The notes under the pieces: generated by a model
What the model was told of the DNA's origin: nothing
The model's input: only the letters and a program-made list of their open reading frames with translations
Database searches by the model: none
Source: Candidatus Woesearchaeota archaeon
GTDB lineage: Archaea > Nanobdellota > Nanobdellia > Woesearchaeales > UBA10216
Assembly (NCBI GenBank): GCA_016192915.1
Contig: JACPTF010000007.1
Span: forward strand, 38,623-102,622
DNA: 64,000 nucleotides
Reading direction: 5' to 3'
Made by a program: the position numbers and the translations under genes
Part shown: positions 3,355 through 38,070 of the stretch, one piece after another
How the letters are laid out: the number at the start of each line of letters is the position of its first letter
Position numbering within the stretch: position 1 is the first letter of the stretch

Positions 3355-4172
3355 TGCTTGTGGCATTAAAAATGACACGATTTAATATGCAGAAAACCGG
3401 AATCGTCTTATTATGCCTAACTATTCTATTCATTCTTGCAGGCTGCAGTTCGCCTAATAACGCTACTGGAGAAGCTGTTAAACTTGATAATCAAACTGGC
3501 AAACTACCCGTAGTTAACTCCTCAGCTCAGCCAGCAACATGTAACCCCAATTGGCAATGTACGGCGTGGGAAAGTTGTAATTCAGGCGTACGTAGGAGAA
3601 GTTGCACTGACCTAAATGGTTGTGGAACGGATATGCCTGCTATTGTAGAACAATGCCAACAAGCTATTGCTCAGCAGCCCGATGTAAGTAAGACACCAGC
3701 TGCGGGTGAGCCTAAAACGGGTCCTGTGATAATAGAAAATTCTCCAACAGATTTAAAACAGCAAGCAAAGCAAGGAGAGGTTACACGTACAGTTGGCGGC
3801 ATAACTCTTGCTCTAAAAAGCATAAAGTATGAGGTGAGAGGTTCCGATTACGCAGTGCTGACGGGCATACAATTTGCTTTAGTTAATGAAGGCAGCGAAA
3901 CGATTAGTCCGAGAATAGCTGTTTATCTATGGGATGATAATGACAAAATAGAGAACAGTGCATCCGAAAAAACATACATAGAGGTTGACGGATACGCATT
4001 TAGAAAGGACGGCTTCATTATAAAAGATGCTACTGTAAGAATACCTTTTGATGATATAAACTTAACAAAACACATTAAATTATCTGCCATGGACGGCAGT
4101 TACTTTGACTCAAGAACCTTTATTAGCATACAGTACGACTTCTTGATAAAAAACCAAAGCAAAGCACAATAA
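3354..4172 (+). CDS. lipoprotein with Cys-rich module
   Basis: LCLTILFILAGC lipobox. CNPNWQCTAWESCNSGVRRRSCTDLNGCG cysteine motif. Start overlaps the upstream stop; the true start may be the internal MQKTG. Confidence 0.55.
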   Translation: MLVALKMTRFNMQKTGIVLLCLTILFILAGCSSPNNATGEAVKLDNQTGKLPVVNSSAQPATCNPNWQCTAWESCNSGVRRRSCTDLNGCGTDMPAIVEQCQQAIAQQPDVSKTPAAGEPKTGPVIIENSPTDLKQQAKQGEVTRTVGGITLALKSIKYEVRGSDYAVLTGIQFALVNEGSETISPRIAVYLWDDNDKIENSASEKTYIEVDGYAFRKDGFIIKDATVRIPFDDINLTKHIKLSAMDGSYFDSRTFISIQYDFLIKNQSKAQ

Positions 4173-4499
4173 CTTAAGCCTTTCCCCTACTGCCAGTTCT
4201 TTTGCCTTTTCGGAACTTAAACATTTGATTGACCTACGGTTTGCCAGTGTTAAGATTCTCGTTAAGCCTTGAGTATAGGCAATGCATTCTTGTTAAATTT
4301 AGTATTATCATTAAGTATTGTTGATGATAGTGATTTTGATGTGTATATGATATATCCATCATCAACACTTCACAAAAATCTTGATAGTTCTTATTCGTTA
4401 TTGGAAAGCAATGCTTAATACTCACTGTTAAAGTTGATAGTTACTCTATGTCCTATTATGGCTCGGAAGGACTGTTAATAGCTGCTGTGAGTTAATAGT

Positions 4500-7540: not shown

Positions 7541-7570
7541 GTTGATAAGGGAGCGTAGAGCTCCCTTATT
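7541..7570 (+). repeat. tRNA leader hairpin GTTGATAAGGGA-loop-TCCCTTATT
   Basis: Stem ATAAGGGA/TCCCTTAT abuts tRNA position +1. The same motif precedes tRNA-Thr and tRNA-Ser(UGA). Confidence 0.7.
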
Positions 7571-7655
7571 GCCGGGAGTGGGCGATCCGGTGCGCCTACC
7601 TGTCTCGAAAACAGGTTTCCGAAAGGATATCGGGGTTCAAATCCCTGTCCCGGCG
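7571..7655 (+). tRNA. tRNA-Ser (anticodon CGA), class II, no intron
   Basis: Hand fold: acceptor GCCGGGA/TCCCGGC, G73. D stem GGGC/GCCT. Anticodon stem CCTGT/ACAGG with loop CTCGAAA. 15-nt variable arm. T arm CGGGG-TTCAAAT-CCCTG. No CCA encoded. Confidence 0.8.
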
Positions 7656-7740
7656 CTCAACCTTCTTTGGCAAGCACAAGCCGACAGCAGTCGGCTGTGC
7701 AGTCCTGCCAAAGCAGGACTTGCAAAGAAGCTTGACCAAG

Positions 7741-12327: not shown

Positions 12328-12456
12328 AGCCTCTGCGGGGACTTGCACCCCGGACCTCGTCCTGATTGGTCAACCGTTTTTGGTTGAGCTTTTGTTCGCC
12401 CACAGGCGAATAAAAGATCATACCAAGGACGCGCGCTACTGCTGCGCCACAGAGGC
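12328..12456 (-). tRNA. tRNA-Thr (anticodon GGU) with canonical 57-nt intron
   Basis: GCCTCTG-TG-GCGC-AGCAGTA-GCGC-G-CGTCC-TTGGTA | intron 12420..12364 | A-GGACG-AGGTC-CGGGG-TGCAAGT-CCCCG-CAGAGGC-T. Abuts the PPIase stop codon. Confidence 0.75.
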
Positions 12457-13157: not shown

Positions 13158-13289
13158 TGCGGGGGAAGGGATTTGAACCCTTGAAGGGACTAACCCACAG
13201 GATGTCCTCCGGCAGATTTTCTGCCTGGCTTAAGTCTCGCAGACGATTTTTCGTCTCCTGCGCATTTAGCCGGGCTTTGCTACCCCCGC
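13158..13289 (-). tRNA. tRNA-Leu (probable anticodon UAA) with two introns flanking the anticodon
   Basis: GCGGGGG-TA-GCA-(13-nt loop)-TGC-G-CAGGA | 21 nt 13255..13235 | CTTAAG | 25 nt 13228..13204 | A-TCCTG, long variable arm, AAGGG-TTCAAAT-CCCTT-CCCCCGC-A. Confidence 0.6.
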
Positions 13290-31478: not shown

Positions 31479-33188
31479 TCAATTATGGCAGTAAATGAAT
31501 GACAACTCCTTTGCATTCTTTTTCTCAAGCCTGCAAAAGCCGAACCTCGCAAACTGAACGATATCCCCTTCCTTAATGTCAGCAGATGCAGCTTCAGCAA
31601 CGCCCTTGCTTACCTTTGCGTCAGGCATGAGCACGTTAACCTTCACAAGTTGTTTGTCATCGGAAGGGAGCCAGTGTATAATTTTGCTGCCGCCCATCCT
31701 GTACTTCTCATATTCAAGCGAGTCAAATGAAAAGCCGCCATTGGATTTCTTGAAGTTTAGGCAGTCCATCATCCTTACAAGACTGCCAGCCTTAAGCTTT
31801 GCTATCTCGCCAAAGTCCTTTTCTGCAATGTAGAACTTCTCCTTCACAGAAAAACGCCTGCTTTTGCTGTCTTCCTTATCAGGGTGGAGCTTAAGCCCCA
31901 TTTTCATGTCCGGTGCGTCCTTAACAGTAATTTCCCTGGGGTTCTCAACGTAAAAGTAGCGGTTGCATTTAGGGTCAAGTATCCTCCTGTTAATGGCGCC
32001 AATCAGCTGCCAGTCAAAGTTCGTTTCTGTCGGAGAAAGCCCAACCTCAATGGCAAGCTCCCAAAAAGTCTCAGTCTGTATGCCCCTCCTTCGCAGAGCT
32101 TTTATAGTGACAAGCCTTGGATCATCCCAGCTCTTAATAGAGCCATCATCCATCATGTGCCTTATCTCTCTTCCCTGGGTTATTGAGCCCTTCACATTAA
32201 ACCTGCCGTACTGGATTACGGTCTGCTTGGGAAGCTTCAAAAGTGCCTTAAGCGTGTCCTGAAGTTCGGTCCTCATGGTGCCAAACTCGTTGCTGCGCAT
32301 TATGTGGGTTATGCCCATTGCCCCATCCTCAACAGAATTCGCAAAATCATACAAGGGCCAGACGCAATATTTCTTGCCCTGCAGGTAATGCTCTGTGTAT
32401 GTTATCCTGAAAAGCACGGGGTCTCTCATAACATGGTTTGGTGATTCCATGCTGCCCTTAAGCCTCAAAACTGCTGCCCCTGCCGTATACTTCTTGTTAA
32501 GCATGTTCTTCCACTCGTCAAGGTTGTGCTTTGAGTCATTCTGCCTGCAGCTGCAGCCAAAGCCTTCATGGCGAAGCTCCCGCATCTTTTCCTGGCTGCA
32601 GAAGCAAACAAATGCGCCGCCCTGCTTAATCAGCTTTTCTGCAAACTCGTAAAGCATAGGAATGTCATTGCTGATGTGTGCAACCTTAGTGGGCTTGATT
32701 CCCAAATACTCCATGTCATCCAGCATGGCATCTGCATACTCTTTCTTGGCAAGCTCAGGGTTGGTGTCCTCAAACCTCACAAAGCACTTACCGCCATATT
32801 TCTTGGTGTACATGTAGTTAATTAGGAAGCTCAGCGCATGCCCTATGTGGGCGTACTTTGAAGGCTCAGGCGGAAGCCTCGTGACAACATTGCCCTTGGA
32901 AGCGTTTTTCAGCTCTGGCAGGTCCTTCTTCTCAGCCTTTTTCTTTTCCAAGAACTCAGGAGCAATCTTGCCAAGCTCCTCAACCTGCTTTTCAACATCA
33001 AGCCGATTAACGGATTTAAGCACAACACTGACAGCAGCCGCTATTCCCTTTATCTCCGGCTTCAGGGAAGGGTTCTCAGCGAGGATTTTCCCAATAACAG
33101 CACCGGCGTTTGCCTTGCCACCATACTGGGCAGCATTCTGCAAGGCATACTTCCTCACAGTCGTTTCAAAATCCTTCGGCAGCGCCAT
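31479..33188 (-). CDS. gltX: glutamyl-tRNA synthetase (archaeal/eukaryal type)
   Basis: 569 aa. Class I HIGH-like PSKYAHIGHALSF, FEDTNP. Typical archaeal GluRS length and C-terminal beta-barrel domain. Confidence 0.9.
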   Translation of the reverse strand: MALPKDFETTVRKYALQNAAQYGGKANAGAVIGKILAENPSLKPEIKGIAAAVSVVLKSVNRLDVEKQVEELGKIAPEFLEKKKAEKKDLPELKNASKGNVVTRLPPEPSKYAHIGHALSFLINYMYTKKYGGKCFVRFEDTNPELAKKEYADAMLDDMEYLGIKPTKVAHISNDIPMLYEFAEKLIKQGGAFVCFCSQEKMRELRHEGFGCSCRQNDSKHNLDEWKNMLNKKYTAGAAVLRLKGSMESPNHVMRDPVLFRITYTEHYLQGKKYCVWPLYDFANSVEDGAMGITHIMRSNEFGTMRTELQDTLKALLKLPKQTVIQYGRFNVKGSITQGREIRHMMDDGSIKSWDDPRLVTIKALRRRGIQTETFWELAIEVGLSPTETNFDWQLIGAINRRILDPKCNRYFYVENPREITVKDAPDMKMGLKLHPDKEDSKSRRFSVKEKFYIAEKDFGEIAKLKAGSLVRMMDCLNFKKSNGGFSFDSLEYEKYRMGGSKIIHWLPSDDKQLVKVNVLMPDAKVSKGVAEAASADIKEGDIVQFARFGFCRLEKKNAKELSFIYCHN

Positions 33189-34099: not shown

Positions 34100-34412
34100 G
34101 CCGCTTTACCAGACTCAGAAAAAAAAGAAGAAAAGCCGGGTTCCGAAACCGGCAAACGCGCTTGCTTCAGCAAGCAACCCACAAGTCTTATTTCAAGAAT
34201 AAACTGTTCATCTTAATATACCTTTCGGTTTTGTCTGGCTATTTTGAAAACCTTGTTTGAAAATTTTTCAATTAAGCCGCAAGTTATTCAAAAAATCACT
34301 GTTTTTCCGTATGATTTACGGCAATGACCGGAACCTTTCTTCACTCAGTGAATAATTTTCAAGAAATCTGGACATAGCTTCATTAAGATGTAAAAACGTT
34401 ATTAAACTTGCC

Positions 34413-34497
34413 GCCGCGGTGGCGAAACCAGGTAGCCGCGCCCGCCTCTCAAGCGGGTGACCCACAAGTCATACGGGTTCAACTCCCGTCCGCGGCG
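34413..34497 (+). tRNA. class-II (Ser-like) tRNA with anticodon CUC
   Basis: GCCGCGG-TG-GCG-(12)-CGC-G-CCCGC-CTCTCAA-GCGGG-TGACCCACAAGTCAT-ACGGG-TTCAACT-CCCGT-CCGCGGC-G. The acceptor stem and G73 are identical to tRNA-Ser(UGA). Confidence 0.6.
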
Positions 34498-34559
34498 TGC
34501 ATTCTTCAAATGTGGCAACAAACTATTTAAACCACCATTTTGTCCCATGACACCGGACC

Positions 34560-34805
34560 GGGCCGGTAGTTAAACCTGGTAAAGGGTTACTGTTAGCGCT
34601 CTCCAGAGTAACGCGCCGCTGGCCGCGGTGTGACCCTTTTTAGAAAAGGGTCAATCAAACCCAAATCGTGCCGTGCACGATTGGGCCCAGTCGGCTAAAG
34701 CCGACTTGGGAACCGTAAAGGCTTCGGGTTCAAACAGCCCTTTTGTTCGCCACTGCTCACAAAAGCGCTGGCGGAAAAACGGGCCTGAAAGTCCCGACCG
34801 GTCCA
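34560..34805 (+). tRNA. tRNA-Ala (anticodon GGC) with three non-canonical introns
   Basis: GGGCCGG/CCGGTCC acceptor with G3:U70 and A73. D arm GTTA-AACCTGGTA | ~27 nt | TAAC. Anticodon arm CGCCG-CTGGCCG-CGGTG. Variable-region intron ~34631-34718. T arm TCGGG-TTCAAA | 34735-34791 | T-CCCGA. Confidence 0.6.
34629..34710 (+). repeat. composite element (GTGACCC..GGTCAATC hairpin + twin-hairpin copy F) forming the tRNA-Ala variable-region intron
   Basis: tgtgaccctttttagaaaagggtcaatcaaa, then CCCAAATCGtgccgtgcaCGATTGGG CCCAGTCGgctaaagcCGACTTGGG. Confidence 0.8.
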
Positions 34806-37749: not shown

Positions 37750-37889
37750 CGCCGCGGCAGGGACTTTCAACACTCGTTGAAAGCTACGAGCTCTCAGCGA
37801 GTTTGTTTGAACCCCGAAGCCCTTGCGGGCACCAGTTTGCTTTTCTGCAAGTTCAAGACTGGCGCACTACCAGGTTATGCGACCGCGGC
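37750..37889 (-). tRNA. tRNA-Ser (anticodon UGA) with two introns
   Basis: GCCGCGG-TC-GCAT-AACCTGGTA-GTGC-G-CCAGT-CTTGAA | 14 nt 37851..37838 | A-ACTGG-TGCCCGCAAGGGCTT-CGGGG-TTCAAA | 42 nt 37805..37764 | T-CCCTG-CCGCGGC-G. Confidence 0.75.
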
Positions 37890-38070
37890 AATAAGGGCAG
37901 TGCCTGCCCTTATCAACCCTCGCACTACGACGAAGGCAATAAGGGCAGTGCCTGCCCTTATCAACCCTCGCACTACGACGAAGGCAATAAGGGCACTCCC
38001 TTCGGTCGCGCCCCTATCACCCCTGCGCCGGCGATGATAGAGCACTCGCAAAGCTCGCTCCCTTATCAAC
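37888..38070 (-). repeat. 48-nt tandem repeat (2 perfect units + degenerate units) of the leader hairpin upstream of tRNA-Ser(UGA)
   Basis: Units at 37888-37935 and 37936-37983 are identical. The third diverges after 13 nt. A further GATAAGGGAG...CCCTTATCAACC-like unit ends at ~38070. Confidence 0.85.

Follow-up and report, generated by a model that had tools for sequence, protein, structure and literature searches.

A 64,000-nucleotide (nt) stretch of DNA from a Candidatus Woesearchaeota archaeon of the DPANN group (GenBank assembly GCA_016192915.1, contig JACPTF010000007.1, positions 38,623 to 102,622 of the forward strand; referred to here as the window) contains a transfer RNA (tRNA) gene in which a class-II body with a long variable arm carries CUC, the anticodon for the glutamate codon GAG. 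By comparing the tRNA genes in this 64-kb window with those on the locus contigs of relatives (given here with the prefix L), we conclude from synteny and from a common body that this gene belongs, with a shifted anticodon, to a class-II tRNA family specific to the clade, the members of which have a G at discriminator position 73 (G73) and normally carry leucine anticodons of the type NAG (N, any base). Its structure and its upstream sequence suggest that it is an intact and probably transcribed member of this family.

The structure of the gene is in agreement across all methods used. A sequence-only reading of the window had proposed a class-II tRNA with anticodon CUC at this position and had named ARAGORN as a check: ARAGORN returns tRNA-Glu(ctc) at 34412-34498(+), the Rfam model RF00005 matches end to end over 34413-34497 with 51.2 bits (E=4.8e-08; gathering score 29) and with a 12-nt insertion in the variable region, and the minimum free energy (MFE) fold of the sequence is the cloverleaf itself (-39.9 kcal/mol, z=-2.9). 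The stem layout is the canonical 7/3/5/5 of class-II tRNAs: the acceptor stem GCCGCGG/CCGCGGC is followed by G73, the D stem consists of GCG/CGC with an A13.C22 mismatch, five Watson-Crick pairs (CCCGC/GCGGG) close a 7-nt anticodon loop with U33, and the T arm, ACGGG-UUCAACU-CCCGU, has a 5-bp stem. The variable region, at 15 nt, exceeds the 10 nt that mark class-II tRNAs and forms a stem-loop of its own. All stem pairs are of standard type (23/23), and U8, A14, G18G19, U33 and the T-loop are intact, so that the gene shows neither the broken stems and lost conserved bases nor the low score of a pseudogene; the bit score and the pairing rule out the possibility, also raised in the earlier reading, that a covariance model would expose it as one.

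The gene is found in independent assemblies. The 238-amino-acid window protein P0121 led to a Logan contig (L019) from run SRR12113426 that matches the window at 100% identity throughout their entire overlap, tRNA included, and the window organism is present in further runs (L020); exact look-ups of the window glutamyl-tRNA synthetase (GluRS) and EamA proteins found no record. A second genome, that of L021, carries a CUC tRNA on the minus strand from 3910 to ~3778 with the sequence GCCGCGGTGGCGAAATTGGTAGACGCG-CCCGC-CTCTCAA-GCGGG-TGACCCACAAGTCAT-ACGGG-TTCAAC[49-nt intron]T-CCCGT-CCGCGGC-G, in which the intron occupies the usual T-loop position of this clade and which ARAGORN, after in-silico splicing, calls as a class-II Glu(ctc). 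The two copies are 95% identical, and the 17-nt anticodon arm as well as the variable arm are identical in both. Given that exact reverse complementation would turn the anticodon loop into one of the Leu(GAG) type and that it lies between perfect inverted repeats, a flipped hairpin loop or a chimeric consensus could have arisen in sequencing or assembly; however, neither would produce the complete identity with L019, nor the same anticodon arm in L021, which has different flanks, a different D-loop and an intron. An artefact is thereby refuted.

The order GluRS, small gene, upstream element, tRNA of this type, tRNA-Ala(GGC) and EamA recurs in three other genomes (L009, L001 and L021; Table 1), and the best relatives of the window GluRS are all from Candidatus Woesearchaeota, the top matches being 91% and ~80% identical. 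In L009 and L001, the locus tRNAs agree with the window copy in the acceptor stem, the D stem, the T arm and the discriminator G73. One scan each of species-representative genomes and of JGI metagenomes, using a pattern of acceptor and D stem followed by T arm and acceptor with a gap of 40-56, retrieved the same tRNA body with the anticodons CAG (L011), AAG (L012) and GAG (L014); only intron-less members were retrieved in this way, and the L021 copy was missed because of its T-loop intron. Strings for a wider search of Woesearchaeota assemblies, with introns allowed, are CCCGCCTCTCAAGCGGG and GCCGCGGTGGCGAAA. Scans of viral sequences for the tRNA and for the upstream hairpin gave no match. The window tRNA is 77-85% identical to the NAG family, with no changes in the acceptor stem, the D stem and most of the T arm, compared to 73% identity to tRNA-Ser(UGA), 67% to tRNA-Ser(CGA), 61% to the window tRNA-Leu(UAA) and 55% to tRNA-Glu of the clade. 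It thus has in common with the NAG family the synteny, the body and the upstream partial self-copy described below, and differs from it in the anticodon. No tRNA of the family is present at the locus in L003, L008 and L015-L018, and L006 keeps only a fused remnant.

The alignment of the window tRNA with six relatives, for which pairing statistics were calculated over six sequences, brings the loop CUCUCAA into register with UUCAGAA, UUGAGGA and CUAAGAA. In this alignment, the cloverleaf is 99.3% paired, double (compensatory) changes are present in 4/5 anticodon-stem pairs and in 2/3 variable-stem pairs, and 0/500 shuffles reach the observed values in a covariation test. The same data bear on an alternative register, shifted by 2 nt, in which the gene would be a tRNA-Leu(CAA), and which the sequence-only reading had already disfavoured. 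The shifted stem CGCCU/GGGUG does form five pairs, two of them G-U, around a loop CUCAAGC with G37, but a +2 slide of the 3' partners leaves only 59% pairing in the family alignment, CUC aligns with CAG, GAG and AAG of the relatives, and the unshifted stem has five Watson-Crick pairs that covary; moreover, in the shifted register three bases would separate the D stem from the anticodon stem and the variable stem would be shorter, and ARAGORN, Rfam and the MFE fold alike choose CUC. We therefore regard the CAA register as effectively refuted.

Table 1. Coordinates of the tRNA gene with anticodon CUC, of the elements upstream of it, and of related and neighbouring genes (window coordinates unless a locus contig is named).
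Feature	Location	Strand	Basis or remarks
Class-II tRNA gene with anticodon CUC, 85 nt, without intron or encoded CCA	34413..34497	+	ARAGORN, Rfam, MFE fold, L019
Anticodon arm CCCGC-CUCUCAA-GCGGG; anticodon CUC at 34448-34450	34441..34457	+	Read directly; family alignment
Variable region UGACCCACAAGUCAU, 15 nt; stem UGAC/GUCA, loop CCACAA	34458..34472	+	Rfam insertion; homology to NAG-family arms
TATA-like box TTAAGATG, -30 to -23 from mature 5' end	34383..34390	+	Conserved block; putative function
Degenerate partial copy of the 5' two-thirds of the tRNA	34135..34187		Alignments of family loci
Invariant hairpin GCCGGGTTCCGAAACCGGCA of the upstream element	34135-34154		Preceded by A-run
ACCCACAAGTC, exact 11-nt match to the variable arm of this tRNA	34177-34187		236 nt upstream of tRNA
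Invariant TATA-like TTAATATA, then CTTTCG	34213..34220		25 nt from variable-arm copy
Archaeal-type GluRS gene	31479-33188	minus	
tRNA-Ala(GGC), G3:U70	34560-34805	+	Three introns (D-loop, after anticodon arm, T-loop)
tRNA-Ser(UGA)	37750-37889	minus	Two introns (after position 37; T-loop); Ser(tga) by ARAGORN after in-silico splicing
tRNA-Leu(UAA), A73	13158-13289	minus	Introns 31/32 and 37/38; Leu(taa) by ARAGORN after in-silico splicing
tRNA-Thr(GGU), candidate	12328-12456	minus	57-nt intron; adjoins tRNA-Leu(UAA)
tRNA-Ser(CGA)	7571-7655	+	Atypical: G at position 8, long D stem
Class-II tRNA of L003	L003 3912-4043	minus	Acceptor stem and G73 as in the CUC tRNA; variable arm of 21 nt with 7-bp stem; T-loop intron
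NAG-family tRNA, L001	L001 8776-8860		G73, Ser(UGA)-type acceptor; GCA_041643095; locus anticodon CAG; GluRS 79% identical to window
NAG-family tRNA, L009	L009 1077-1161		G73, Ser(UGA)-type acceptor; GCA_016188155; locus anticodon CAG; GluRS 91% identical to window
NAG-family tRNA, L011	L011 6424-6508		G73, Ser(UGA)-type acceptor
NAG-family tRNA, L012	L012 2147-2230		G73, Ser(UGA)-type acceptor
NAG-family tRNA, L014	L014 300-384		G73, Ser(UGA)-type acceptor
CUC tRNA, L021	L021 3910 to ~3778	minus	GCA_016180025; locus anticodon CUC; GluRS 79% identical to window

Upstream of the tRNA, two types of conserved sequences are present. The block CATTAAGAT lies at the same distance from the gene in the alignment of the window, L009, L011, L014 and L021, and the TATA-like box TTAAGATG would be suitably placed for leaderless or near-leaderless transcription. 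In addition, every family member has, ~240-330 nt upstream, a degenerate partial copy of itself that covers the 5' two-thirds and matches the tRNA's own variable arm exactly over 9-14 nt; this element was found in the window (34135-34220), in L001, L009, L011, L012, L014, L015 and L021, and in L003 at ~4135-4176 (minus). Besides the parts listed in Table 1, it includes an anticodon-arm-like hairpin, in the window CTTGC-TTCA-GCAAG, that is variable among loci. The variable-arm copy covaries with its cognate tRNA, the mean exact match being 11.7 nt within a locus versus 4.8 nt between loci, and only 1/720 permutations reaches the observed total. The odd class-II tRNA of L003, which is unrelated, has the same upstream layout with a 12-nt match of its own, and in L015 the element is present without a tRNA; at the Ser(CGA), Ser(UGA) and Leu(UAA) genes no upstream self-copy was found. 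Read on the minus strand, the element shows a box resembling a promoter, a seed at the 5' end that is antisense to the variable arm, a hairpin and a run of T, and we hypothesize that it could be either a small antisense RNA transcribed from the minus strand or a recombination repeat. A C/D-box guide RNA was considered as well, but visual inspection revealed neither C nor D boxes. In L006 (9766-9945, minus), the 5' part of the element, with a 40-nt intron-like insert in the hairpin loop, is fused to a variable arm, a T arm with a T-loop intron, and CCGCGGCG; this remnant looks like the product of a deletion between the two variable-arm repeats by which the tRNA was lost.

Sequence conservation is uneven along the locus. 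Relative to L009, the flanking coding DNA of the window is 89-91% identical at the nucleotide level, whereas tRNA and spacer are 76% identical. Relative to L021, the GluRS is 79% identical at the amino acid level, and nucleotide identity amounts to ~97% over 34135-34325, ~78% over 34326-34412 and 100% in the anticodon arm, the variable arm and the T stem. This mosaic of the tRNA module conflicts with the genome phylogeny and therefore indicates allelic replacement or recombination among co-occurring lineages; it looks as if the module has been exchanged laterally, and the pattern points to co-occurring groundwater Woesearchaeota as the partners. The known carriers of the CUC class-II tRNA are the window lineage, in two assemblies, and L021, and their identical arms may reflect a recent exchange of this type. 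The D-loop of L021 is of the ordinary Leu-family type, whereas that of the window has an extra base (ACCAGG versus ACUGG/AUUGG), so that the extra base is not a property of the CUC type.

The meaning of the codons concerned was determined from 67 crude open reading frames of the window (longest non-overlapping) and from 42 gene-locus alignments. GAG is the commonest Glu codon, with 36.3 per 1000 codons as compared to 34.2 for GAA. In the alignments, window GAG is aligned to E in 87% of cases, followed by D, K and Q, and at the codon level its partners are GAG (66%) and GAA (21%), whereas Leu codons stay below 0.5% and none of the ten commonest partners is a Ser codon; the partners of window GAA are GAG (37%) and GAA (39%). 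CTN codons exchange with TTG and, non-synonymously, with ATN, TTY and GTG. Genes of L021 show the same behaviour of GAG and CTN as those of the window. GAG is Glu and CUN is Leu in these genomes, and the genetic code is standard; a reassignment of GAG or CUG is rejected by the codon alignments of both the window and L021.

The synthetases for long-arm tRNAs, leucyl-tRNA synthetase (LeuRS) and seryl-tRNA synthetase (SerRS), do not read the anticodon (PMC9976931), which lends support to the argument of the sequence-only reading that SerRS reads the long arm and the discriminator instead. According to the same source, A73 is a Leu determinant in every studied system, G73, the long variable arm and G30-C40 are archaeal SerRS determinants, and G73 is a LeuRS antideterminant in Haloferax. 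The window tRNA has all three of the Ser determinants and, as all of the NAG family, has G73 in place of the A73 found in the window tRNA-Leu(UAA). With respect to glutamate, it has an anticodon of the type YUC, as expected of a tRNA-Glu, on a body that is not that of the clade's tRNA-Glu: tRNA-Glu(UUC) of L008 (35-109) and L006 (3771-3995) is class I with A73 and a loop CUUUCGA with G37, and the window tRNA is long-armed with G73 and A37. Two derivations from tRNA-Glu were considered and rejected: the variable arm is not a mini-intron within a normal tRNA-Glu, since it is homologous to the family arms and the body is unrelated to tRNA-Glu, and the anticodon arm was not borrowed from tRNA-Glu, since the stem and position 37 differ.

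The sequence-only reading had described the tRNA as Ser-like and proposed that it inserts Ser at GAG. The likeness is real insofar as the acceptor stem of the family is exactly that of tRNA-Ser(UGA) in the window, in L001 (5314-5413) and in L021 (559 onward), and G73 is likewise common to both; also, identity of the NAG family to Ser(UGA) (68-79%) exceeds that to the A73 tRNA-Leu(UAA) (60-63%), and the window copy resembles Ser(UGA) in having 6 nt ahead of G18G19 and a variable region of 15 nt. Together with the SerRS determinants and the block of Haloferax LeuRS by G73, these are the points in favor of a Ser identity. The label is nevertheless too specific: the orthologues carry CAG, the anticodon is not a Ser anticodon, the nearest relatives are those with Leu anticodons, identity to Ser(UGA) stays below the 77-95% found for the NAG and CUC members, CUN is Leu in these proteomes, and the Ser-like D-loop is absent from the L021 copy, in which the D-loop is of the Leu-family type. 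We therefore consider insertion of Ser at GAG on account of a Ser identity improbable. With CUN meaning Leu, leucylation of the NAG family is the simplest interpretation, and by descent the cargo of the CUC tRNA would then be Leu. All tRNAs of the clade seen with Leu CUN anticodons have G73, which contradicts the A73 rule for Leu of all domains; either LeuRS of this clade ignores position 73, or the G73 NAG tRNAs are not the housekeeping decoders of CUN. As a rough split, we would assign the cargo of the CUC tRNA 40% to Leu, 30% to Ser, 12% to Glu and 18% to none.

Combining the structural, syntenic and codon data, we suggest, with a probability of about 0.4, that the gene encodes an expressed missense tRNA that is charged like its NAG siblings and decodes GAG. 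In this model, the anticodon of one G73 NAG-family allele became CUC at the locus at which sister genomes hold tRNA(CAG). Because LeuRS and SerRS do not recognise the anticodon, the tRNA would still be charged like its siblings through variable arm, D-loop geometry and discriminator, with Leu if descent and codon evidence are the guide and with Ser if the G73 rules apply. At GAG, the CUC tRNA would then be a competitor of the true tRNA-Glu and give rise to missense incorporation of Leu or Ser in place of Glu; the decoding of CUG would fall to a tRNA with anticodon UAG, and the code itself would not be reassigned. The flawless fold, the restriction of differences to compensatory ones, the conserved TATA-like box, the intron of L021 at a standard site and the occurrence in two genomes argue for a functional gene. 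As to the mutational route, at least two substitutions separate CUC from any anticodon for Leu or Ser. The reverse complement of the loop CUCUCAA is exactly UUGAGAG, a loop of the Leu(GAG) type, and the loop lies between perfectly complementary stem arms; template switching has been documented to invert hairpin loops of 7-8 nt (PMC8794818). Loop inversion is no more than a possible route: from the syntenic CAG, an extra substitution would still be needed, and the coincidence is weak, by our own estimate only ~1 in 64 given a functional loop.

Several observations weigh against such a missense tRNA. The cargo is uncertain because G73 blocks LeuRS in Haloferax. GAG makes up 3.6% of codons, at which missense incorporation would come at a cost, and its share of aligned Glu sites is ~63% in the window versus ~66% in relatives, without avoidance; a codon that is the commonest and unavoided implies that an efficient Leu- or Ser-inserting tRNA should be costly. 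The identity of anticodon and variable arms between the window and L021 may be due to recent lateral exchange rather than to long purifying selection. A34 is not normally used in archaea and is present in L012 (AAG), the relative in L003 has a 6- or 8-nt anticodon loop, and the gene is deleted in L006; together with the absence of the tRNA at the locus in several relatives, these oddities fit a dispensable, drifting gene. On the same grounds, the gene could be a silent or non-translational allele, that is, a dispensable CAG copy whose anticodon drifted or was flipped, that is neutral, that spread by recombination, and that takes no part in translation owing to poor expression, lack of charging or lack of acceptance, or, as a variant of this reading, an RNA with a regulatory role within a mobile tRNA module. 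This alternative, which we consider unlikely and still a serious one, accounts for the variability of the locus (no tRNA in L003, L008 and L015-L018, deletion in L006, element without tRNA in L015), for the abnormal anticodon loops in L012 and L003, for the lack of GAG avoidance, and for the ~97% identity of the module over ~190 nt as opposed to 79% for GluRS, if this reflects recent exchange. It is harder to reconcile with the fact that at least 2/3 of the anticodon bases have changed relative to every Leu or Ser anticodon, yet 0/23 stem pairs are broken, and with the intact tertiary positions and promoter box; likewise, L021 keeps a T-loop intron at the standard position in an otherwise perfect tRNA.

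Alternatively, the tRNA may have been recruited by a non-discriminating class-I GluRS as a harmless or useful class-II-shaped tRNA-Glu(CUC). Class I synthetases approach the tRNA with the variable arm facing the solvent, and the gene is kept in two genomes that are heavy in GAG and do not avoid it; moreover, the acceptor pairs G1-C72, C2-G71 and C3-G70 match those of the clade's tRNA-Glu. Against this recruitment, we know of no class-II tRNA-Glu, G73 and A37 stand in place of the A73 and G37 of the clade's tRNA-Glu, to which the body is 55% identical, and LeuRS or SerRS would probably still charge the tRNA. The adjacency to gltX is uninformative because the CAG versions adjoin gltX too. Bacterial Glu/Gln-type synthetases rely on the anticodon, and U35, C36 and A37 are all present here, but the long arm conflicts with the delta-47/augmented D-helix determinant of bacterial GluRS (PMC9976931). 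Recruitment after an anticodon shift is documented in eukaryotes and mitochondria (PMC3923123, PMC4783518). On balance, we regard a recruitment to Glu as a rather slim prospect. A further model, to which we likewise give little weight, would extend the missense tRNA to the whole group: the class-II tRNAs with G73 and the acceptor stem GCCGCGG (CAG, GAG, AAG, CUC and the relative in L003) would be accessory, laterally exchanged and regulated missense modules that are Ser- or Leu-charged, with the CUC member re-aimed at GAG. In such modules, the upstream element, possibly as a minus-strand small RNA, would have a seed matching the variable arm, the main handle for LeuRS and SerRS.

To our knowledge, anticodons that contradict the tRNA body are rare and known in nematodes, some bacteria and human variants, and neither in archaea nor for Glu on a long-arm body; we also know of no described shift from a class-II tRNA to Glu that needs at least two substitutions. 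A literature search found no such tRNAs described in DPANN or other archaea, which is weak evidence given the limited literature covered. The closest known system in its working appears to be that of the nev-tRNAs of nematodes (Hamashima et al. 2012, PMC3333845), which are class-II tRNAs derived from tRNA-Leu with Gly or Ile anticodons, are charged with Leu and read GGG as Leu in vitro; by analogy, the same mechanism is proposed for the tRNA described here. Both have a class-II body with the 7/5 fold, Leu-type kin, an anticodon for neither Leu nor Ser, and a codon whose standard meaning is kept in the proteome, and they differ in that the present tRNA is archaeal, has a Glu anticodon (CUC) directed at the commonest Glu codon, has G73, occurs in two genomes and is known from sequence alone. 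The bacterial allo-tRNAs (Mukai et al. 2017, PMC5389517), for which roles in missense suppression and/or regulation as RNAs have been proposed, also have a long-armed Ser-type appearance with non-Ser anticodons, including those for Leu codons, and are accessory, patchy in distribution and associated with particular elements nearby; in contrast to their 8/4 or 9/3 combination of acceptor and T stem, the tRNA in the window has 7/5, is archaeal, and has as its neighbour a partial copy of itself rather than a toxin-antitoxin pair. The tRNA-Ser(CAG) of Candida and the CUG clade, by which CUG is read as Ser in an adapted proteome (PMC5951914), combines a Ser-type class-II body with a Leu anticodon, which formally is the look of the whole G73 NAG family, but in the genomes compared here CUN is still Leu and GAG still Glu. 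Finally, in anticodon shifts or alloacceptor remolding (PMC3923123, PMC4783518) syntenic orthologues have different anticodons and the class is changed by substitution in the anticodon, as in the present case, although these shifts mostly concern class-I tRNAs whose synthetases read the anticodon.

The tRNA described here provides a concrete candidate for natural mistranslation in archaea, with a flawless predicted structure, occurrence in two genomes and a target codon that makes up 3.6% of all codons, in a DPANN host with a minimal genome and little room for damage to the proteome. It also poses the questions of how LeuRS and SerRS separate tRNAs that have the acceptor stem and G73 in common and of what role the covarying upstream partial copy has. 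If GluRS charges the tRNA, it would be the first class-II tRNA-Glu. If the tRNAs of this group are regulated modules, they would constitute the first archaeal system of deliberate, controllable mistranslation and imply a new rule for Leu/Ser identity in which G73 no longer separates the two.

Further genes in the vicinity encode a thermosome subunit, the EamA transporter, a HIT protein and a GT4 glycosyltransferase. The tRNA genes of the clade are rich in introns at non-canonical positions, and because of these standard finders miss most of them: the only other default ARAGORN call in the window is Ser(cga) at 7571-7656, and ARAGORN in its default mode and Rfam both miss tRNA-Ser(UGA) because of its two introns. 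The orthologues of the latter have one intron in L001 and two in L021. tRNA-Ala(GGC) lacks introns in L008 (7288-7361), and the copies in L001, L009, L021 and L006 have fewer of them than that of the window. In the class-II tRNA of L003, the anticodon arm CCAGC-UGAUAA-GCUGG has a 6-nt loop, which ARAGORN reads as an 8-nt loop, "tRNA-??? (gata)".

The sole Rfam match of the atypical tRNA-Ser(CGA) is to tRNA-Sec with 34.6 bits, below the gathering score, and the gathering score of the general tRNA model is not reached; its orthologues in L006 and L008 have anticodon-loop introns of ~50-100 nt. Upstream of tRNA-Ser(UGA), on its strand, a 48-nt tandem repeat (window 37887-37995; 2.3 copies, 100% identical) is present, the units of which carry GGTTGATAAGGG...CCCTTATT. 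A similar hairpin adjoins the 5' end of tRNA-Ser(CGA) (window 7542-7570), and TTGATAAG lies at about -29 to -22 of that gene, so that the 48-nt repeat may be a duplicated promoter.

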